IMG/VR virus record: IMGVR_UViG_2541047897_000007
Coordinates: 1 to 36,207 of that record
Source of the DNA: a virus
Taxonomy: Duplodnaviria; Heunggongvirae; Uroviricota; Caudoviricetes
DNA: 36,207 bases
Reading direction: 5' to 3' (one strand)
In this document: positions 9,178 through 32,076 of the stretch, piece after piece
How positions within the stretch are numbered: the stretch's first letter is position 1
How the letters are laid out: the number at the start of each line of letters is the position of its first letter
The notes under the pieces: generated by a model
Databases searched by the model: none
Seen by the model: only the letters and a program-made list of their open reading frames with translations
What the model was told of the DNA's origin: nothing
Made by a program: the position numbers and the translations under genes

Positions 9178-10137
9178 ATGAAAATTTGTATCGATGACGG
9201 CTCCACCAACATCAAGCTGGCATGGACTGAGAACGGCGAACGCCGCAACGCCATCAGCCCAAACAGCTTCAAGTCGGAATGGTCTGCGCCGTTCGGTGGC
9301 ACGCAGCCCGCGAACTACATGCTTGATGGCGTGCGCTATGGTTTTGATCCGGTCAGCGATCGCTTTGTCCAGACGACCGACACGCAATACCAGTACAGCG
9401 ATGTGAATGTCATTGCCATTCATCACGCGCTGGTCAAATCAGGCATCACACCACAGGAAGTGGATGTGGTTGTCACCCTGCCACTGAGCGAATATTTCGA
9501 CACAAACGCACAGCCGGTCATGGCCAACATCAACCGCAAAAAAGCAAACGTCATGCGCCCGGTGGCGTACCAGAACGGAAAAGCATTCACTATCCGTAAC
9601 GTACGGGTTATGCCTGAATCCATTCCGGCTGGTTTTAAAGCACTGGCTGACATGAGTCCGTTTGAATCCCTGCTGATTGTGGATTTAGGCGGAACCACGC
9701 TGGATGTGGCAAAGGTTCAGGGACAACTGGCAGGTATCAGCCAGGTGTTTTGCGATCCACACGTAGGCGTTTCCCTGATGGCCGATGCCGTACTGTCGGT
9801 GATGGCCACTAACGGTATGCGTACCAGTCACCACATCGCCAATACCATTATCGAACATCGCCATGATGAAGCTTGGCTGCGCCAGCACATCCACAATGAC
9901 GCGCATTACGACAGCCTGATAGCGGTTATTCGTGAAAAGGAAGAAACACTGAAACAACGCGTGATCCGCGCGCTGGCGGGTTTTTCGGGTTACGGGCGGG
10001 TGATGGTTGTCGGTGGCGGGGCGGAGATTGTGGCACCCGCTATCCGCGAAGCCTGCGGAGTTAATGCGACTTTCATCGCGGACGGGGTGCCACAGTTTGC
10101 TCTGGTTAATGGGCTGTACGCAATGGACAAGGAGTAA
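9178..10137 (+). CDS. parM: ParM/StbA-like actin-type segregation ATPase
   Basis: 319-aa ORF; actin-fold motifs IDDGSTNIKL, IVDLGGTTLD and VVGGGAE; close match along its length to plasmid R1 ParM as recalled from memory. Confidence 0.85.
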   Translation: MKICIDDGSTNIKLAWTENGERRNAISPNSFKSEWSAPFGGTQPANYMLDGVRYGFDPVSDRFVQTTDTQYQYSDVNVIAIHHALVKSGITPQEVDVVVTLPLSEYFDTNAQPVMANINRKKANVMRPVAYQNGKAFTIRNVRVMPESIPAGFKALADMSPFESLLIVDLGGTTLDVAKVQGQLAGISQVFCDPHVGVSLMADAVLSVMATNGMRTSHHIANTIIEHRHDEAWLRQHIHNDAHYDSLIAVIREKEETLKQRVIRALAGFSGYGRVMVVGGGAEIVAPAIREACGVNATFIADGVPQFALVNGLYAMDKE

Positions 10138-10141
10138 ACCA

Positions 10142-10453
10142 ATGACGACACCAACCAGACGGATAAGTTTCTATCTGAAGCCCGCCGCCGTCAAGAACGA
10201 AGGCGAAGCATGCGCCTGGCTGGACAGCCTTACACCAGAAGCCCGCAAAAGTGGTCAACGTGTGGCTTTTCTGGCCGGACTGGCACTTATGAAAATTAAT
10301 CCGGCAGAGGCTTACCGACTGGCTGCATGGGCTGACGATGAAGCGTTATCCCTGACACAAACCAGGACAGAACGCCCCGTGTCACAGCCAGCACCAACCG
10401 CACAGATAACCAGTCAGATGGCCGGAAATATCCGGGCGTTATTTCCCGAATAA
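10142..10453 (+). CDS. parR: ParR-like centromere-binding adaptor (candidate)
   Basis: 103-aa product from the ATG at 10142 with AGGAG RBS; RRISFYLKP...AGLAL...LFPE resembles R1 ParR as recalled from memory; position directly after the parM-like gene. Confidence 0.55.
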   Translation: MTTPTRRISFYLKPAAVKNEGEACAWLDSLTPEARKSGQRVAFLAGLALMKINPAEAYRLAAWADDEALSLTQTRTERPVSQPAPTAQITSQMAGNIRALFPE

Positions 10454-10516
10454 CACAACATCAGGGCGCATCCGCCCTGATGACTTTAACCCGGGAACAT
10501 AAACAAGGGGGACACA

Positions 10517-10849
10517 ATGCAACACATTGACAGAGAAAAAGCGCAGCGACTGATTGAGCGGATGGAAGCGCTGGCGCAAGAAGAAAATGTCAACATCCAA
10601 AAAATAGCTGAATGTGGCCAGATAGTTCTTCGTCGTGAAAAAGACCTCAAACAACTGATGTCTGGCAAAACCAGCAAAACATGGGATTCAGGCGAGGAAA
10701 TGATTTATTGCAGCTTCTGCAATAAATCCCAGTACGAAGTCACAAAGGTGATTGCTGGACCGTCTGTTTACATCTGCAATGAGTGCGTGGATTTGTGCAA
10801 TGAAATTATCAGGAGAGAAGTGGCAGACAAAAAGGGAAAAAACACATGA
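10517..10849 (+). CDS. stand-alone ClpX-type C4 zinc-finger (ZBD) domain protein
   Basis: 110-aa ORF with strong RBS; C-terminal [38 protein letters not shown] is near-identical in pattern to the E. coli ClpX N-terminal zinc-binding domain, including the spacing of all four Cys; no AAA+ module follows. Confidence 0.75.
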
Positions 10850-11160
10850 ACAGAAAACAAAAACAAGAGTTGAAATACTTTTTACGTAAAGAAATTGCCA
10901 GGCTTGAAGATGCAGAATCACGATCATCAGAAATTCCGTTCGGAATGGATATCAACGACGCCCGTATGCTCCAGGCATACCGTATAGCTCAGGCTGCACT
11001 ACAGGCAAAACCGTCAGATGGACTGGTTAGAGCAGTACGTTTCTATGAACTGGTAAAGCGTGAGAATCCGCCAACCGAAACCGGAGCATGGAAAGACGCT
11101 GTTGACTGGGTGCTCAGAGAAGCTTGCCAGACTGTAAACATTGGTATCAAAGGAGAGTGA
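10846..11160 (+). CDS. hypothetical protein
   Basis: 104-aa ORF, start overlaps the upstream stop. Confidence 0.55.
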
Positions 11161-11162
11161 GA

Positions 11163-11654
11163 GTGCAGATTTCACCGGTTACTCTTCGTGTTGCGAAGGC
11201 ATTTATATCCAGACATCACCGACACAATAAACCCCCGGTGGGGCATAAATTCAGCATTGGTCTGAGAAATGATGCCGGAGAATTGATAGGTGTGGCGACA
11301 GCCGGTCGACCTGTTGCACGACATTTGGACGATGGATTAACGCTTGAAGTAAATCGCACATGTACCACAGGAGAACGCAACGCTAACAGCGCGCTTTATG
11401 GTGCTGTCTGGCGGGCAGCAAAAGCTATGGGTTATCAACGTTGTATTACGTACACCCGGGCAGATGAATCAGGAGCATCTCTTCGCGCAGCTGGTTTTGT
11501 TCGTGTGAAAGAGCTTCCTCCAAGAAAAAGCTGGGCGGAATCAAGCGTCGCCCTGCGGAGTAAACGCGATCCGGTCGGAAACGGTGGTGTTCCTCGTGTG
11601 CTCTGGGAAATCAGGAGAATGAGTACCACTGGCATTCGCATCAAAGGAGAGTGA
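11163..11654 (+). CDS. hypothetical protein (weak GNAT-like resemblance)
   Basis: GTG start at 11163 with AGGAG 6 nt upstream preferred over the overlapping ATG at 11124; 163 aa. Confidence 0.45.
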   Translation: MQISPVTLRVAKAFISRHHRHNKPPVGHKFSIGLRNDAGELIGVATAGRPVARHLDDGLTLEVNRTCTTGERNANSALYGAVWRAAKAMGYQRCITYTRADESGASLRAAGFVRVKELPPRKSWAESSVALRSKRDPVGNGGVPRVLWEIRRMSTTGIRIKGE

Positions 11655-23365: not shown

Positions 23366-23966
23366 TTCGTTGTTACCCCCATCAGCCAGCAATTTCATGC
23401 GTTGTGCCGAAGCCGTCGGAACACGCATTACAGACATTCCGGTAGACCTCAACACGTTGTGGTCGCCGGACACCTGCCCGGTGCATCTGCTGCCTTATCT
23501 CGCCTGGGCGTTTTCCGTTGACCGCTGGGATCGCAACTGGCCGGAAGAGACAAAGCGACAGGTGATTCGTGATGCATGGCTGATACACCGACACAAAGGG
23601 ACCATCAGCGCACTGCGAAGAGCCGTGGAGCCTCTCGGCTACCTGATTGAAGTAAAGGAGTGGTGGCAACTCAATGAGGAGCCTGGGACATTTCGCATTG
23701 TTGTCGGAGTACTTGATCAGGGCATCACCGATGAAATGCATCAGGAACTTGAACGCCTTATTGCGGATGCAAAACCAGTAAGTCGCCATCTGACAGGGCT
23801 GGCGATCAGTCTGAGTGTGAACGGAAAGATTTTCGTTGGTACGGGATGCTATCACGGCGATGCCCTGACGGTTTACCCCTACACCCCGGAGTCCATTATT
23901 GTCGAAGGGGATTATTTCTCTGCCCCGGCCATTCATTTAATTGATAATCTGAGAGTAAACGCATGA
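23358..23966 (+). CDS. I: baseplate/tail protein I
   Basis: ATG at 23358 preferred over the upstream ORF-track start; WSPDTCPVHLLPYLAWAFSVD matches the conserved P2 gpI N-terminal region as recalled. Confidence 0.8.
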   Translation: MSNSLLPPSASNFMRCAEAVGTRITDIPVDLNTLWSPDTCPVHLLPYLAWAFSVDRWDRNWPEETKRQVIRDAWLIHRHKGTISALRRAVEPLGYLIEVKEWWQLNEEPGTFRIVVGVLDQGITDEMHQELERLIADAKPVSRHLTGLAISLSVNGKIFVGTGCYHGDALTVYPYTPESIIVEGDYFSAPAIHLIDNLRVNA

Positions 23967-26134
23967 CAATGAAATACTACGCCATTCTGACTAATCAGGG
24001 CGCGGCACGACTGGCTAACGCGACGATGCTCGGCAGTAAGCTGAATCTGACGCAAATGGCCGTTGGTGATGCAAATGGTGTGTTACCAACACCAAACCCT
24101 GCACAAACAAAACTGATTAACCAGAAACGCATTGCACCGCTGAATCTTCTGAGTGTTGACCCTAACAATCAGAGCCAGATTATTGCGGAGCAAATTATCC
24201 CTGAAGACGAGGGAGGATTCTGGATCCGTGAGATTGGTCTTTATGATGATAAAGGTGTACTCATTGCGGTGGCAAACTGCCCGGAAACGTACAAACCGCA
24301 GTTGCAGGAAGGCAGTGGACGCACCCAGACTATCCGCATGATTCTGGTTGTCACGAACACCAAAGCCATCACGCTGAAAATCGACCCGTCTGTGGTTCTG
24401 GCAACCCGCAAATATGTGGATGATAAAATCTCAAAGCACGAGCAGTCACGACGTCACCCGGACGCCTCGCTGACCGCAAAAGGCTTTGTTCAACTTAGCA
24501 GCGCCACGGACAGTCAATCAGAAACTGAGGCTGCCACGCCGAAGGCTGTGAAAATCGCGTATGATCTGGCCCGGGGAAAATACACAGCCCAGGATGCAAC
24601 AACGACCCGTAAAGGGATCGTACAACTGAGCAGTGCCATCAACAGCACGTCTGAAACGCTGGCCGCCACACCAAAAGCCGTCAAGGCTGCATACGACCTT
24701 GCAGCTGGCAAGGCACCCGTCAGCCACACTCACCCGTGGAGTCAGATAACGGGAGTGCCTGCTGCCTCGCTGACGGCAAAAGGCACCGTACAACTGAGCA
24801 GTGCCACGGACAGTCAATCAGAAACTGAGGCTGCCACGCCGAAGGCTGTGAAAATCGCGTATGATCTGGCCCGGGGAAAATACACAGCCCAGGATGCAAC
24901 AACGACCCGTAAAGGGATCGTACAACTGAGCAGTGCCACCAACAGCACCTCTGAAACGCTGGCCGCCACACCAAAAGCCGTCAAGGCTGCATACGACCTT
25001 GCAGCCGGCAAGGCGCCCGTCAGCCACACTCACCCGTGGAGTCAGATAACGGGAGTGCCTGCTGCCTCGCTGACGGCAAAAGGCACCGTACAACTGAGCA
25101 GTGCCATCAACAGCACGTCTGAAACGCTGGCCGCCACACCGAAGGCCGTCAAGGCTGCATACGACCTTGCAGCCGGCAAGGCGCCCGTCAGCCACACTCA
25201 CCCGTGGAGTCAGATAACGGGAGTGCCTGCTGCCTCGCTGACGGCAAAAGGCACCGTACAATTGAGCAGTGCCATCAACAGCACGTCTGAAATACTGGCC
25301 GCCACACCGAAAGCGGTCAAGGCTGCATACGACCTTGCAGCTGGCAAGGCACCCGTCAGCCACACTCACCCGTGGAGTCAGATAACGGGAGTGCCTGCTG
25401 CCTCGCTGACGGCAAAAGGCACCGTACAATTGAGCAGTGCCATCAACAGCACGTCTGAAATACTGGCCGCCACACCGAAAGCGGTCAAGGCTGCATACGA
25501 TCTGGCAAACGGAAAACAACCGGCAGATGCCACGCTCACTGCTCTGGCAGGACTTGTCACTGCAGCAGATCGGTTGCCTTATTTTACCGGAGCAGACCGC
25601 GCAGCGCTGGCAACCCTTACAGCTATTGGTCGCGCTATTATCGCTAAGGGCAGTATAAAAGATGTCCTCAATTACCTTGGTTTGGGAGAAGGTTCTCCAG
25701 CTATTGGCGTTCCGTTCTTCTGGCCGTCCGCCGCAATGCCAGATACCGTAATCAAAAGCTGGTCCAGTATGGTGTTTTTGAAGTTCAACGGGGCGAAATT
25801 TTCTGCCTCTGATTACCCTGTGCTGGCAAAAGTGTTTCCTTCGCTGGTATTACCTGAAGCCCGCGGTGATTTCATTCGTATCTGGGATGACGGGCGAGGT
25901 GCAGACGGTGGTCGCAAATTATTAAGCTGGCAGGCAGCTACAAACTTTTCTCAGTTTGCCGGGAATATAGGCGGAGGTGCGGGACACGCAATTAATTTTC
26001 ATGATGGCATCGCCGGAAATCAGCCAGGATTTTCACGATTTAATTTCACCAGTAACTCTTTGGGTGATGGTGTGAATTTTGTTGCTGTCAGACCGCGAAA
26101 TATTGCATTTAACTTTCTGGTGAGGGCTAAATAA
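23963..26134 (+). CDS. H: tail fibre protein (P2 gpH-like) with internal tandem repeats and an invertible C-terminal segment
   Basis: 723-aa ORF; N-terminus MKYYAILTNQGAARLANA is gpH-like; internal 100-aa and 56-aa repeats; C-terminal 148 aa lie inside the invertible segment. Confidence 0.9.
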   Translation: MTMKYYAILTNQGAARLANATMLGSKLNLTQMAVGDANGVLPTPNPAQTKLINQKRIAPLNLLSVDPNNQSQIIAEQIIPEDEGGFWIREIGLYDDKGVLIAVANCPETYKPQLQEGSGRTQTIRMILVVTNTKAITLKIDPSVVLATRKYVDDKISKHEQSRRHPDASLTAKGFVQLSSATDSQSETEAATPKAVKIAYDLARGKYTAQDATTTRKGIVQLSSAINSTSETLAATPKAVKAAYDLAAGKAPVSHTHPWSQITGVPAASLTAKGTVQLSSATDSQSETEAATPKAVKIAYDLARGKYTAQDATTTRKGIVQLSSATNSTSETLAATPKAVKAAYDLAAGKAPVSHTHPWSQITGVPAASLTAKGTVQLSSAINSTSETLAATPKAVKAAYDLAAGKAPVSHTHPWSQITGVPAASLTAKGTVQLSSAINSTSEILAATPKAVKAAYDLAAGKAPVSHTHPWSQITGVPAASLTAKGTVQLSSAINSTSEILAATPKAVKAAYDLANGKQPADATLTALAGLVTAADRLPYFTGADRAALATLTAIGRAIIAKGSIKDVLNYLGLGEGSPAIGVPFFWPSAAMPDTVIKSWSSMVFLKFNGAKFSASDYPVLAKVFPSLVLPEARGDFIRIWDDGRGADGGRKLLSWQAATNFSQFAGNIGGGAGHAINFHDGIAGNQPGFSRFNFTSNSLGDGVNFVAVRPRNIAFNFLVRAK
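24461..25500 (+). repeat. in-frame tandem repeat array within H (2 x 300 bp, then 2 x 168 bp plus a partial unit)
   Basis: near-identical units starting at 24461, 24761, 25061, 25229 and 25397, encoding ASLTAKGTVQLSSA...HTHPWSQITGVPA. Confidence 0.85.
25665..25690. repeat. left crossover site of invertible segment (gix/hix-like), inside H
   Basis: ttggtttgggagaa at 25677..25690 is the exact reverse complement of ttctcccaaaccaa at 27501..27514; it encodes the LGLGE junction of H. Confidence 0.6.
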
Positions 26135-26727
26135 TGAAACCTGTTTTTGATGAAAATGGGCTGGCTACAGTGCCGGGCGATATGCGTTGTTTTTATTATG
26201 ATGCTGAAACATCTGAGTATACGGGCTGGTCTGATGAATATATTAATACTGGCGTAAGTATGCCCGCCTGTTCCACTGGTATTGACCCTGGCGAAAACAT
26301 TCCGGGAAGAGTGGCAGTATTTACAGGTAAGGGATGGAGCCTTGAAGAAGACCATCGCAATGAGACTGTTTACTCAATCGAAAATGGTGCTGCTGTTACA
26401 GTGGATTATATCGGTGCCATCAAAAACGGTTATGTCACGCTTTCACCGTTAACGCCATATGATAAATGGGATGGTGAGAAATGGGTGACAGATACTGAGG
26501 CACAACACGGTGCCGCAGTAGAAGCGGCAGAAGCACAGCGCCAGTCACTGATTGATGCTGCAATGGCCTCCATCAGTCTGATTCAGCTGAAATTACAGGC
26601 CGGGCGGAAGCTGACGCAGGCAGAAACCACCCGGCTTAACGCCGTGCTTGATTACATTGACGCGGTGACGACAACAGATACCAGCACCGCGCCGGATGTC
26701 ATCTGGCCTGAACTGCCGGAGGCGTAG
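26134..26727 (+). CDS. G: tail fibre assembly chaperone (P2 gpG-like)
   Basis: 197-aa ORF translationally coupled to H; conserved Tfa-like C-terminus LDYIDAVTTTDTSTAPDVIWPELP. Confidence 0.8.
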   Translation: MKPVFDENGLATVPGDMRCFYYDAETSEYTGWSDEYINTGVSMPACSTGIDPGENIPGRVAVFTGKGWSLEEDHRNETVYSIENGAAVTVDYIGAIKNGYVTLSPLTPYDKWDGEKWVTDTEAQHGAAVEAAEAQRQSLIDAAMASISLIQLKLQAGRKLTQAETTRLNAVLDYIDAVTTTDTSTAPDVIWPELPEA

Positions 26728-27139
26728 GCCATTCAATATCTGGCGCACCGGAAGTATCGACCAGTTCCAGTGCGTCCAGATAATCCAGCCACAAATTATA
26801 TTGCGCCAGTTCCTCACCTTTCAGACGACCAATAGCCGCTTTACCAGGCCATTGTTTACTGTTCATATAATCGTTGGCCTGATTAATCAGTTGCTGCTTT
26901 TCCTGTTCGGCTGCAGCAATCTGTTCCTCATGTGTTGGTGGTGGAATTTCAGACCATGCAGGAAAACCATTTTCTCCAGCGATACGGATTTTTCCTTTCG
27001 GCGGTAATCCGGAAAACTCAATATACACTTGCTCATCAACTTCAACAGCATCATCTGGCCATGAGTCAGCTTGTGTGTAATCCTCTTTCATCTCCAAGGG
27101 ATAGAAAGAGTTTGTCGTCGCGGAATATATGTAATTCAT
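26699..27139 (-). CDS. alternative tail fibre assembly chaperone (G'), inverted orientation
   Basis: 146-aa ORF on the opposite strand with Tfa-like C-terminus LDYLDALELVDTSGAPDIEWPTPP; convergent with and overlapping G, as in Mu G-segment / P1 C-segment architecture. Confidence 0.75.
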   Translation of the reverse strand: MNYIYSATTNSFYPLEMKEDYTQADSWPDDAVEVDEQVYIEFSGLPPKGKIRIAGENGFPAWSEIPPPTHEEQIAAAEQEKQQLINQANDYMNSKQWPGKAAIGRLKGEELAQYNLWLDYLDALELVDTSGAPDIEWPTPPAVQAR

Positions 27140-27161
27140 TTTTTCACTCCATATAGCTAAA

Positions 27162-27514
27162 TTAACAGCCTAACGCTAAAAATGAAGCGCCGAGGCCAGG
27201 AGTACTGGCTCTGGATATAAATTTAACCGGGTCGGAACTAAAACCTGCACAGGCAATATAACCAACAGCCCCGCTATCTGGTGTGTAGTCTTGTGAGACC
27301 AAAACACGCAGACATCTGTTTGGAAATGCAATCGGGAAATGGGTTACTACATCCTGTGCAATGCCTGGTGCGCCGATTGAGCCCCACTGAAGAATAAAAC
27401 CAGATGGTAATTTTTGATATCCAGTACCTGAAACAGAAAGCGTGAAGCTACCCATATCAGGTATCTGATTCGTCCCTGTCCCCACATTCCTTTTTGCCGC
27501 TTCTCCCAAACCAA
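27162..27514 (-). other. promoter-less alternative C-terminal coding segment of the tail fibre (H' variable part)
   Basis: minus-strand frame open from the right crossover site to a stop at 27162; encodes ...[10 protein letters not shown]..., matching the LGLGE junction in H; would fuse to H after inversion. Confidence 0.6.
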
Positions 27515-27526
27515 CGTTTTCGTTTT
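27501..27526. repeat. right crossover site of invertible segment (gix/hix-like)
   Basis: ttctcccaaaccaacgttttcg fits the Din-family crossover pattern (TTCTC..AAACC-NN-GGTTT) recalled from memory; 55 bp upstream of the invertase start. Confidence 0.6.
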
Positions 27527-27580
27527 TATCCCTACCTATACCAACTCTGTATTTTTCACGAAACAAAGAGGATGTTTTTT

Positions 27581-28180
27581 ATGCAAATTGGCTATATTCG
27601 TGTGTCAACAAACGACCAGAACACGGATTTACAACGCAATGCACTGAACTGCGCAGGATGTGAACTGATTTTTGAAGATAAAATCAGCGGAACGAAATCA
27701 ACCAGACCGGGATTGAAAAAACTGCTCAGAACGCTATCAGAAGGAGATACGCTGGTTGTCTGGAAGCTGGACAGACTGGGCAGAAGTATGAAACACCTGA
27801 TCACGCTTATTGAGGAATTGCGGGAAAAAGGTGTTAATTTCCGTAGTCTGACGGACAGCATTGACACGTCAACACCCATGGGGCGTTTCTTTTTTCACGT
27901 CATGGGGGCTTTAGCCGAAATGGAACGTGAATTAATTGTAGAACGTACACTGGCCGGGCTGGCAGCAGCACGCGCACAAGGACGCATTGGCGGACGTCGC
28001 CCGAAGTTGACAAAAGAACAACACGAGCAAATAGCAAGGCTGATTAAAAACGGTCATGACAGGAAACAACTGGCGATCATTTACGACATCGGCATATCGA
28101 CGATTTATCGTTATCACCCTGTAGGCGATATACAGGCTGAAGCAACAACTAGGCAGACTCAGGAAAATGAAAACCGCTAA
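27581..28180 (+). CDS. serine recombinase, DNA invertase of the Gin/Hin/Pin/Cin family
   Basis: 199-aa ORF; N-terminus MQIGYIRVSTNDQNTDLQRNAL with catalytic Ser, LVVWKLDRLGRSMKHL and C-terminal HTH; close to Gin as recalled. Confidence 0.9.
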   Translation: MQIGYIRVSTNDQNTDLQRNALNCAGCELIFEDKISGTKSTRPGLKKLLRTLSEGDTLVVWKLDRLGRSMKHLITLIEELREKGVNFRSLTDSIDTSTPMGRFFFHVMGALAEMERELIVERTLAGLAAARAQGRIGGRRPKLTKEQHEQIARLIKNGHDRKQLAIIYDIGISTIYRYHPVGDIQAEATTRQTQENENR

Positions 28181-28707: not shown

Positions 28708-31700
28708 TCAATCTTTATCGTAAAAACTGCCACGCCCGGCACGGGCGCGCCGTTCCATTTCTGCCCTGACCATTTCACCGACCAGTTTCGCCAGTTCGCG
28801 GGGATTCTGCGTAACAACGTTATGCAGATGAACATGAATTTCACCACCAAATCCGGAGGCAACAGGCTCCCGGTTACGGGAAGTTACAGGAACTGATGCC
28901 ACTGGCGATCGTATGGCCTCCGCCACCGGGCGGGAGCTGGCCGCAACAACAGGGACCAGCGCCGGAGGCAGCGGAGCCGGGACCACGGGTGTGGTATTAA
29001 TTGCGGGGGCAGGCTTACTGACCTGCGCAATCTTCCGCTCCTGCCACTCCCCACCAGGGACCAGCGCCAGAGGCAGCGGAGCAGGGACCACGGGTGTGAT
29101 ATTAATTGCGGGGGCAGGCTTACTGACCTGCGCAATCTTCCGCTCCTGCCACTCCCCACCAGGGACCAGCGCCGGAGGCAGCGGAGCAGGGACCACGGGT
29201 GTGATATTAATTGCGGAGGCAGGCTTACTGACCTGCGCAATCTTCCGCTCCTGCCACTCCCCACCAGGGACCAGCGCCAGAGGCAGCGGAGCAGGGACCA
29301 CGGGTGTGATATTAATTGCGGGGGCAGGCTTACTGACCTGCGCAATCTTCCGCTCCTGCCACTCCCCACCAGGGACCAGCGCCAGAGGCAGCGGAGCAGG
29401 GACCACGGGTGTGATATTAATTGCGGGGGCAGGCTTACTGACCTGCGCAATCTTCCGCTCCTGCCACTCCCCACCAGGGACCAGCGCCGGAGGCAGCGGA
29501 GCAGGGACCACGGGTGTGATATTAATTGCGGAGGCAGGCTTACTGACCTGCGCAATCTTCCGCTCCTGCCACTCCCCACGAACGGCAAGTGCGCGGGGCA
29601 GGTTCTTAAAGACAATATCACCGGGGCCAATGCGTTTTTTCGTCTCATCAACCAGCTTACCTGTGTTATCAGCAATTTTGCTGAGTCTGCGTAGCGTACC
29701 GGTATTGCTGTCTGTGAGCGGTTTGTTGTCTTTGGGTTTATCGCCTCCGGTGCCATTGCCATTTTCCGCAGACTTCGGCGGATTGATTTTCGCAATGTCT
29801 CCCTGAAACAGAGCAACCTTGTCCTGAAGAATGGCCGCACGCTGTGCGTCTTCAATTTTCTTGCGCGCCCTTTCCGCTTCATCCGGAAGGACGCCAAGTT
29901 TTTCAAGTATCCACGCCAGCGTATCCAGTAGCATTTTTGCAGGTGTCAGAACAAGCTGTAACGCACCGCCAAGAACGTTACCGAATATCTCGCCAGCACT
30001 GGTACATTTATCCAGCGTTTCCTTGCTGGACTCCATCGGTGACAGCAGCGATTTAAACCAGTTAAAGACCTGAATAATCCCATCGCGCACGACATCAAAA
30101 ACAGGACCGAACCGTTCAAAGGTTTCGCGCAACGGAGCCAGTCGTTCCATAATCCCGTTGAACACCCCGATATAAAACGCCTTGATGGGTTCCCAGTATT
30201 TCCAGATGAGAACTGCCGCAGCCACAAACGCGGCAACAATCAATCCGACCGGACTGAACAGCGCCCCGATAGCGCCACCCAGCAACGAGATGGAACCTGT
30301 TACCATTCCCCATAGTGCTGGCAGCACCCTGACGACATTCATTGATCCTGTCAGGAGAGAAAAACCGAGACGTAACGTAGCCAGCTTCCCGTGAAGCACC
30401 CCAATAACCAGAGACAACGAACCAACCGTTGCTGTTGTCGCCAGCAGTGCGCCTCCCGCTATCAGTAACTGGCGCGTCAGTACCGGATGGGCCTGCGCCA
30501 GCGCCGTCACCTTTGAGACCACCCGCGTGAGCCACTGCGTGACAGAACGCAGCGGACCGTCAATCAGATCTGCAATGCGGATGCGCAACCCTTCCCATGC
30601 ACTGCCGAGTGATTTCAGATCGCCATCAAGGTTGTTGGCCATAACCTTTGCCGTGCGTTCAGCCTCACCGCGTGCGCCCTCAAGTTCTTTTCTCAGTTTG
30701 GGTAAGGAACCGTCACCCGCCGCATCAACGAGTGCCATAAACGATGTGAAAGCCTCTTCCCCGGCGATGTCCTTAAAGAAGGATACCCGGTCAACTTCCC
30801 CGTATTTGCGGGTGGCTTTATAAAGGTCAGCCAGCAGATCTTCCATCGGGCGCATTTTGCCCCCGGCATCCGAGACGGACACGCCCAGCTCTTTCAGAGC
30901 TTCTGCCGCCGCCTTTGGCGGTGATGCCAGACGAGCCAGGCTGGCACGCATTGCCGTCCCGGCATCACTCCCTCTGATGCCCATATTCGCCAGCACGCCC
31001 GCCATCGCTGCGGCCTGCTCCAGCGATATCCCCAGCTTACCCGCCACCGGACCGGCATATTTCATGGTTTCGCCCAGTGCGCGAAGGTCAGTGTTGGTAC
31101 GGGTAAACGCTGCGGTGAGTGTGTCTCCGACCCGGTCCATCTGGTCAGCAGAAAGGCCGAACTGCGTCAGGATATTTGAGCCAATATCTGCCGTCTCGCC
31201 GAGATCCATACCGCCAGCCGTTGCCATGCTCAGTACGCCGGGAAGCGCAGCCTGAATGGCCTGCGGAGTGAAGCCTGCCATTGCAAGAAATGCCTGCCCA
31301 CTGGCGGCATCGCCTGCGGTGAACTGCGTTTCAGAGCCAAGTTTTAACGCCTGCTCACGCAGCGCCTTAAACTGCGGGCTGTTTTTGTCGATTCGCGTCA
31401 GTGCCTGAACGCGGGACATCTCTTTCCCGAACCCGATCGCAGGCTGCAAAAAACGCCCGGCAGCATAGCCGCCAGCCGCTGCCGCACCAATTGCCAGCGC
31501 ACCACCTGTTTTCAGTTTTCCTGCTGTTTCCTGCGCGCGCGAATACCGCTCACGCGCACGCGTTACACGCGCAAGCGCCTGCTGTTCGCGTTCAAGCTGA
31601 TTGTTGTACTGTTCGGTGCGTCTGATGGCCTGCTGGATGGTGTTATCGCTGCCTGTCAGGGAAATGCCGTGGCGTTTCAGCTCTCCGCCAAGCTCCCGCA

Positions 31701-32076
31701 TTTTCTGAATTTCCCGTGTGCGCGATTCATTCAGGCGTTCAAGCCGGGTGCTTAACTGCTGCATCAGCTTTTGTTGTTTTTCGCTGAGCACTGTACCCGT
31801 GCGTTGTAACTGATTAAGGGCGTTAAGCTGGCGTCGTGCTTTCACGATGCCAGCATCCGCTTTACTGACAGCGTCACGGGCGCGCTCAAATGAACGCGCC
31901 TGACGCTCGAGATTTTTGATCGCCCCCTGCGTTCGCTGGATGGAGTCACCAAACTGCCCCATCAGGCGGCGGGCGTTTTCGGCAGGCCGGGTCAGCCTGT
32001 CAACGGCGCTGAAAGCGACCCGGATATCAAGAGTCTTCATTGTCTGCATTCCCGCTGCGAAGTGCCGCCCGCTCAC
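28708..32076 (-). CDS. T: tail tape measure protein (P2 gpT-like) with proline-rich tandem repeats
   Basis: 1122-aa ORF; Ala/Gly-rich helical N-terminal two thirds with hydrophobic segments; follows the E/E' frameshift genes; six 35-aa repeats near the C-terminus. Confidence 0.85.
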   Translation of the reverse strand: MSGRHFAAGMQTMKTLDIRVAFSAVDRLTRPAENARRLMGQFGDSIQRTQGAIKNLERQARSFERARDAVSKADAGIVKARRQLNALNQLQRTGTVLSEKQQKLMQQLSTRLERLNESRTREIQKMRELGGELKRHGISLTGSDNTIQQAIRRTEQYNNQLEREQQALARVTRARERYSRAQETAGKLKTGGALAIGAAAAGGYAAGRFLQPAIGFGKEMSRVQALTRIDKNSPQFKALREQALKLGSETQFTAGDAASGQAFLAMAGFTPQAIQAALPGVLSMATAGGMDLGETADIGSNILTQFGLSADQMDRVGDTLTAAFTRTNTDLRALGETMKYAGPVAGKLGISLEQAAAMAGVLANMGIRGSDAGTAMRASLARLASPPKAAAEALKELGVSVSDAGGKMRPMEDLLADLYKATRKYGEVDRVSFFKDIAGEEAFTSFMALVDAAGDGSLPKLRKELEGARGEAERTAKVMANNLDGDLKSLGSAWEGLRIRIADLIDGPLRSVTQWLTRVVSKVTALAQAHPVLTRQLLIAGGALLATTATVGSLSLVIGVLHGKLATLRLGFSLLTGSMNVVRVLPALWGMVTGSISLLGGAIGALFSPVGLIVAAFVAAAVLIWKYWEPIKAFYIGVFNGIMERLAPLRETFERFGPVFDVVRDGIIQVFNWFKSLLSPMESSKETLDKCTSAGEIFGNVLGGALQLVLTPAKMLLDTLAWILEKLGVLPDEAERARKKIEDAQRAAILQDKVALFQGDIAKINPPKSAENGNGTGGDKPKDNKPLTDSNTGTLRRLSKIADNTGKLVDETKKRIGPGDIVFKNLPRALAVRGEWQERKIAQVSKPASAINITPVVPAPLPPALVPGGEWQERKIAQVSKPAPAINITPVVPAPLPLALVPGGEWQERKIAQVSKPAPAINITPVVPAPLPLALVPGGEWQERKIAQVSKPASAINITPVVPAPLPPALVPGGEWQERKIAQVSKPAPAINITPVVPAPLPLALVPGGEWQERKIAQVSKPAPAINTTPVVPAPLPPALVPVVAASSRPVAEAIRSPVASVPVTSRNREPVASGFGGEIHVHLHNVVTQNPRELAKLVGEMVRAEMERRARAGRGSFYDKD
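28953..29578 (-). repeat. six tandem 105-bp in-frame repeats inside T
   Basis: period of exactly 105 bp (marker ggct at 29012, 29117, 29222 ...), encoding GEWQERKIAQVSKPA[SP]AINITPVVPAPLP[PL]ALVPG. Confidence 0.85.

Follow-up and report, generated by a model that had tools for sequence, protein, structure and literature searches.

Gene H and its surroundings

The window (the whole 36,207-nt stretch of DNA that was analysed) carries a tail fibre gene, H, which begins with a P2-type N-terminal domain and continues into consecutive copies of a known fibre repeat. The gene and its N-terminal domain are placed as follows.

23963-26134, plus strand: tail fibre gene H, 723 aa, from the open reading frame list, its translation, and matches to PF12571 and, seven times, to PF03406
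23963-24412, plus strand: N-terminal P2-type fibre domain, residues 1-150, full-length match to PF12571 'tail-collar fibre protein' (E 9e-62)

Gene H is flanked upstream by P2 gene I (PF09684) and downstream by a tail fibre assembly gene (PF02413), and beyond H the window also encodes a tape measure (PF10145) and gpD (PF05954). Near-identical relatives are annotated with the whole P2 late-gene order, V-W-J-I-H-G and then the tail genes. The original prediction had called the gene tail fibre gene H, and this assignment is supported by the PF12571 and PF03406 matches, by the PF09684 and PF02413 neighbours and by the gene order common to the relatives. An identical 723-aa protein is already public as 'tail fiber protein' of Escherichia coli UMEA 3193-1 (WP_021563457.1/EQX76110.1), and the UniRef100 cluster of the 723-aa protein is labelled n=27 E. 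coli. The accessory region of the window resembles phages P88 and PhiR44_2 with 97% identity which, together with the P2-type tail module, places the window within the P2 group as P88-like. A PADLOC scan of the accessory genes in the window for defence systems found none.

A tandem array of seven repeats in H

Tandem Repeats Finder, run on the whole window, reported two arrays, one at 24464-25106 with a period of 300 (2.1 copies, 96% matches, no indels, score 1209) and one at 24911-25507 with a period of 168 (3.6 copies, 96%, score 1068). The array scores beyond chance. Both arrays lie in frame within a single open reading frame, that of gene H. A gap-free repeat search gave the same registers, with the long unit spaced 300, 168 and 168, and a 101-nt core alternating between spacings of 132 and 168. 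At the protein level, PF03406 (Phage_fiber_2, 'Phage tail fibre repeat') matched seven stretches of H with 427.7 bits against the Pfam cut-off of 22, and these copies follow one another in tandem with a spacing of 44 or 56 residues. They are arranged as A B A B B B B, where A is 44 aa and B is 56 aa; the B unit carries the SHTHPW motif and, compared with A, an extra APVSHTHPWSQITGVPA segment. The 300-nt unit is composed of one A and one B, two diverged copies of a single protein repeat of ~40 aa (A and B share ~58-60% DNA identity), and thus the array counts seven protein repeats. The units map as follows, all on the plus strand.

24464-24763: first 300-nt unit, composed of A1 (24464-24595, 44 aa) and B1 (24596-24763, 56 aa)
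24764-25063: second 300-nt unit, composed of A2 (24764-24895) and B2 (24896-25063), 96% identical to the first
25064-25231: 168-nt unit B3, missing in the six-repeat relative L001
25232-25399: 168-nt unit B4, missing in the five-repeat relatives L002-L004
25400-25507: partial unit B5, with which the run of seven PF03406 repeats ends, from the unit map and Tandem Repeats Finder

Near-identical tandem repeats within H, as originally proposed, were therefore found by both repeat searches; the earlier layout of two 300-bp units, two 168-bp units and one partial unit matches this map, and the earlier coordinates (24461-25500) were off by a few bases only. Units of the same flavour are 94-98% identical in DNA. 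The pairwise identities are 125/132 for A1 and A2, 164/168 for B1 and B2, 161/168 for B3 and B4 and 153/168 for B1 and B3. The DNA likeness between B5 and B4 stops at ~25501, with unique sequence beyond, and the protein repeat runs on. Unit sizes of 132, 168 and 300 nt are all multiples of three which, combined with the high identity between units, means that misaligned recombination would shift whole units and leave the frame intact.

Alleles on near-identical backbones differ by whole units

Comparison with related prophages revealed an allelic series, in which relatives with four, five and six repeats have flanks 99.4-99.8% identical to those of the window (97.8-98.1% upstream in L002-L004) and differ from it by exact 168- or 300-nt units.

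Window: H of 723 aa, seven repeats, the longest allele of the series
L001: H of 667 aa, six repeats, 99.8% identical upstream (7377 nt) and 99.7% downstream (4186 nt), exactly one 168-nt unit fewer
L002-L004: H of 611 aa, five repeats, 97.8-98.1% identical upstream and 99.7% downstream, two 168-nt units fewer
L086: H of 567 aa, four repeats, flanks 99.6% identical, 468 nt fewer

Two of these relatives, L003 with five repeats and L086 with four, both lie on chromosome-sized contigs, showing that copy-number variation is real in this lineage. The repeat counts of related prophages thus run through four, five, six and seven on near-identical backbones, and P2-type H genes as a whole span two to seven repeats, in agreement with the earlier suggestion that the copy number is unstable.

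Next, the sequences of the individual units were compared between alleles. An in-register copying analysis showed that B3 equals nt 1-43 of A2 joined to nt 44-168 of an L001-type B1, with zero mismatches. Similarly, B4 equals nt 1-101 of B5 joined to a B1/B2-type tail (nt 102-168, the last 67 nt), again with zero mismatches, which is the composition expected if B5 and B2 had undergone one unequal crossover. B1 and B2 of the window correspond to B1 and B2 of L001 with their 3' parts exchanged. No private substitution was present in B3, B4 or the rearranged B1 and B2, every base being found in sister units, indicating that the alleles arose from one another by recombination and not by point mutation. 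The array thus seems to vary through unequal homologous recombination (unequal crossing-over) combined with gene conversion. A simple scheme of one unequal crossover per step was rejected, as more than one event is needed to account for B3, given where it lies and what it is made of, and for the exchanged 3' parts of B1 and B2. For the window and its relatives, the unit mosaics yielded neither the order of events nor the direction, expansion or deletion, of each step. The original prediction that the array is recent or homogenized by recombination is in line with both the exact-unit differences on near-identical backbones and the mosaic nature of B3 and B4.

Copy-number range and spread of the repeat module

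To place the seven copies in context, we surveyed the best 120 database relatives of H, 49 of which share the P2-type N-terminus. Among these 49 proteins, three repeats were present in one, four in 19, five in 26, six in two and seven in one; because more repeats give a higher score, the list is skewed to long arrays. P2-type H genes at IMG/VR loci carried two to five repeats. Another P2-type H with seven repeats (P0079) was found on a 4.9-Mb contig. Thus the seven copies in the window mark the upper end of the range for P2-type genes, and are not unique.

The same alternation of 44 and 56 residues was also observed among the best 120 relatives in fibres with unrelated N-termini, which have six to 15 repeats: eight to 15 on plasmid contigs of 92-118 kb and six to 11 in other chromosomal prophages. 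In strain CD306, for example, a different prophage near ybaP/ushA carries a 730-aa fibre gene with an unrelated N-terminus whose array DNA is 95% identical over ~1.2 kb. Array matches were detected in 1,683 of 5,426 complete E. coli genomes, in up to 18 places per genome. The shared spacing and array DNA in otherwise unrelated fibres suggest that the module is common to different phage types, either by descent or by exchange.

Assembly artefact and import from another prophage

One explanation of the long array is an error of assembly, in which the true number of repeats would be five or six and a short-read assembler would have walked the repeat graph again, producing chimeric units. Several observations are compatible with this. 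The seven-unit array was absent from the 5,426 complete E. coli genomes, in which the best matches had 95-96% identity and were shorter by 168 or 468 nt, and the six- and seven-unit alleles of the window's own series were encountered only in draft-level records (a 47-kb contig and a 958-kb contig). Some IMG/VR contigs, L009, L025 and L028 among the P2-type genes, stop inside the array, showing that it breaks assemblies, and the exact mosaics B3 and B4 could also be the product of a mis-traversed graph. In addition, the tape-measure gene contains a second over-long array of exactly identical 105-nt units (six copies at 28950-29579, 98% matches) that is likewise unmatched in complete genomes; there are three copies in close relatives and one in most complete genomes. 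However, the identical 723-aa protein exists as a RefSeq non-redundant entry with the UniRef100 label of 27 E. coli, and the reading frame is unbroken. Furthermore, the different seven-repeat H on the 4.9-Mb contig shows that seven repeats are not implausible, and the four- and five-repeat alleles on chromosome-sized contigs prove genuine variation. We regard an artefactual copy number as improbable and, even if the assembler had over-expanded the array, the repeat family and the real difference between four and five repeats would stand.

Import of the extra units by recombination from the fibre gene of another prophage in the same cell would fit the occurrence of array DNA in unrelated fibre genes (CD306, the 1,683 genomes and the plasmid-contig fibres), but B3, B4 and the rearranged B1 and B2 are fully explained as exact mosaics of L001 units with zero foreign substitutions, and the best non-P2 arrays are 4-5% divergent, so that this source was rejected as very improbable.

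An invertible tip cassette downstream of the array

The array ends upstream of a segment with the features of an invertible cassette.

25665-25690: left 26-bp crossover site, in H at the NYLGLGE codons, TCCTCAATTACC TT GGTTTGGGAGAA, inverted repeat
26134-26727, plus strand: assembly gene for the expressed tip, PF02413 (E 1e-26)
26699-27139, minus strand: alternative assembly gene, currently silent and in mirror image, PF02413 (E 1e-38)
27162-27500, minus strand: alternative C-terminal tip of H, Gp53-like_C, PF21882 (E 1.5e-15)
27501-27526: right 26-bp crossover site, TTCTCCCAAACC AA CGTTTTCGTTTT
27581-28180, plus strand: serine DNA invertase, 199 aa, N-terminus MQIGYIRVST, PF00239 (E 4e-51) and PF02796 (HTH_7, E 2e-12)

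The two sites are inverted relative to each other and have TTCTCCCAAACC-AA in common; they resemble the consensus quoted in Table 3 of PMC4134206. The left site forms the boundary of the constant, array-holding part of H. The 199-aa invertase gene is also called in the relatives. When inversion was simulated at the central dinucleotides, H remained in frame, giving a protein of 688 aa with the Gp53-like_C tip, followed by an assembly gene of 146 aa. Both orientations occur in nature, as positions 25677-26886 of the window align in reverse with positions 10493-9284 of L084 (96.4%), and this inverted alignment begins at 25677, the site centre (central dinucleotide). In two other relatives (L085 and L087) the whole cassette has been swapped for another, with breakpoints at both sites and homology resuming at 27500-27501. 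The array is therefore part of the constant region of a fibre gene that is switched by an invertase, and this architecture has already been published. The original prediction had recognized neither this setting nor the long-known repeat family, and had not noticed that the 300-nt unit is a pair of diverged repeats.

Possible role of the repeats in the fibre shaft

Taken together, our results make it very probable that the seven PF03406 repeats belong to the constant, putative shaft part of H in a P2-like (P88-like) E. coli prophage, and that the units change by recombination. The array is positioned between the N-terminal PF12571 domain and the C-terminal tip. With the baseplate-attachment domain on one side and the receptor-binding tip on the other, the array probably contributes to a trimeric fibre shaft, one structural module per unit, and it is on this position that the proposed lengthening of the shaft by the array rests. 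If each unit is one shaft module, copy number would set fibre length and leave receptor specificity untouched; specificity would be set separately by the downstream invertible C-terminal cassette.

In the fibre of phage T4, His-x-His motifs of gp37 bind metal ions on the trimer axis. By analogy, the SHTHPW motif of the B units, with its His-x-His, may likewise hold a metal ion on the trimer axis. A sequence search of the PDB returned a sole match, to a single repeat of Mu fibre protein S (residues 111-150; 5YVQ/8JU3/9KI1). An AlphaFold2 model of the H monomer, from a 40-sequence alignment, had a mean pLDDT of 37, with values of 60-88 over residues 1-110, below 50 from residue 133 on and 20-40 over the array, so that the N-terminal domain is the only confidently modelled part of H; the native fibre is expected to be trimeric. 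The structure and function of Pf2 have been described as poorly known (PMC3368898).

A more far-reaching idea is that repeat copy number is a selected and fast 'length dial', matching the reach of the fibre to the thickness of the O-antigen or capsule independently of the tip, with tail length adjusted at the same time through the 105-nt array of the tape measure. The window, with seven and six copies respectively, the maxima seen, would then be a long-reach variant. We consider this improbable. A joint expansion of the H and tape-measure arrays was rejected as a rule, as their counts do not go together across loci. In P0079/L084, seven H repeats are accompanied by a 935-aa tape measure with one copy, in P0036/L086 four H repeats by a 1005-aa tape measure with three copies, and L001 and L002 differ in H repeats with the same number of tape-measure copies.

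Comparison with known fibre systems

All seven units match the family PF03406, known from lambda Stf, P2 gpH and Mu fibre protein S, and nothing essential is different; one unit of the window aligns to residues 111-150 of the Mu protein. The origin of the repeat has been traced to lambda stf (PMC3368898). Compared with most P2-type genes, the window has seven copies against mostly four or five (among the best 120 relatives), and the DNA of its units is unusually similar. In the side tail fibres of related EHEC prophages, collagen-like and coiled-coil segments vary in length by whole periods, multiples of three or seven residues (PMC3368898). The principle of a shaft whose length varies with the number of units is the same, whereas the period differs, Gly-X-Y triplets or heptads in those fibres and 44- or 56-aa PF03406 repeats here.

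The fibre loci of the E. coli EC958 prophages Phi1, Phi2 and Phi4 show the same architecture as the window, as far as described in the available excerpts of PMC4134206, which contain nothing on repeat copy number. The tips of the EC958 fibres have Collar domains according to the same excerpts, whereas in the window the expressed tip has no Pfam match and the silent tip is Gp53-like_C. The window also resembles the Mu G, P1 C and e14 P switches (Gin/Cin/Pin) in having a serine invertase, 26-bp inverted sites at the boundary between the constant and variable parts, and alternative tip and chaperone genes in mirror image. Unlike the Mu and P1 switches, the host element here is a P2-like prophage, and the likeness concerns the context of the array and not the array itself.

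Among the papers searched for PF03406 there were descriptions of the family and of the architecture, and no study of copy-number variation. The array is an ordinary and already-known feature: the repeat family has long been curated, the gene architecture has been published, and the copy number of this fibre-repeat module changes by ordinary unequal recombination. Its significance beyond annotation hygiene is slight. It does provide an example of fibre genes that gain or lose whole in-frame units in prophages that are otherwise identical and, since arrays of this kind interrupt or mislead short-read assembly, the lengths of fibre genes taken from draft genomes call for caution. Were copy number to alter fibre length and adsorption to hosts with different surface layers, it would form a second axis of host-range evolution beside the invertible tip; the fibres of P2-type phages and tailocins could then also be engineered to a chosen length in a simple way.

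Selection on the sense frame and antisense open frames

Most differences between units lie at the third codon position of the sense frame, and most are synonymous. The ratio of synonymous to non-synonymous codon changes is 4:1 between A1 and A2 and 5:1 between B3 and B4. This bias indicates purifying selection on the sense frame. The array is also spanned by a long open frame on the opposite strand.

24821-25849, minus strand: antisense stop-to-stop open frame of 343 codons, which includes the listed 233-aa open reading frame 24818-25519; by-product of the repeat

The antisense translation is a repeat rich in Cys, Arg and Gly. The frame has 343, 287 and 231 codons in the seven-, six- and five-repeat alleles respectively, so that exactly 56 antisense codons are lost with each repeat lost, as expected if the frame is a by-product of the array. 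This regular loss of 56 codons per unit, together with the mostly synonymous differences at sense third positions, agrees with the original view that the antisense open reading frames across the array are artefacts of the repeats.

The invertible fibre segment

Positions 25665-28180 of the window form an invertible tail-fibre host-range switch, with the following components:

25665-25690, left 26-bp inverted crossover site, inside the tail fibre gene H
27501-27526, right 26-bp inverted crossover site
minus strand, alternative tip and alternative assembly genes of the switch
27581-28180, serine invertase of the switch

Alignment with relative loci revealed that the segment lies in the reverse orientation in L084 compared with the window, and that in two others (L085 and L087) a different cassette replaces that of the window, with breakpoints at exactly both crossover sites. 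No invertase gene was called at 10530-11186 of L084, the relative with the inverted segment, and the DNA there aligned with the invertase region of the window at 96% identity. The L084 invertase may be a pseudogene, in which case the switch would be locked in that relative.

A second repeat array, in the tape-measure gene

A second near-perfect tandem array was found in the tape-measure gene:

28708-32076, minus strand, tape-measure ORF (1110 aa from its probable start at 32040)
28950-29579, in this minus-strand gene, 6.0 copies of a 105-nt (35-aa) unit, 98% matches

The units of the array follow one another as a b c b b c. In relatives whose flanks were 99.4-99.8% identical to those of the window, the array had three copies (a b c; 1005-aa tape measure), most complete E. 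coli genomes had a single copy (935-aa tape measure), and none of the complete E. coli genomes searched had six. Tail length is set by the length of the tape measure; the window phage is thus predicted to have a longer tail, unless the six-copy array is an assembly artefact. When copy numbers were compared across relatives, no co-variation was found between this array and the PF03406 array of H.

Many IMG/VR viral contigs (L009, L022, L023, L025, L027, L028, L031, L038 and L043) broke off within the PF03406 array of their own fibre gene, with the ORF cut at the right end. The array is evidently a frequent break point for short-read assemblies.

Accessory genes

One further region of the window was analysed:

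9178-11654, accessory region flanked by replication gene A and the portal gene

It encodes a ParM-like actin (PF06406 and PF21523), a small ClpX-type zinc-finger protein and a 176-aa protein with a sub-threshold Mom-like match; PADLOC gave no match to defence systems in this region. Phages PhiR44_2 and P88 were 97% identical to it, and their counterpart is annotated with ParM and a partition protein.

In L004, one close relative, an additional 625-aa gene (582-2459) is present as an insertion that separates the lysis genes from gene R. This gene, missing in the window and L001-L003, encodes PF03629 SASA, DUF1737 and DUF6645 domains.
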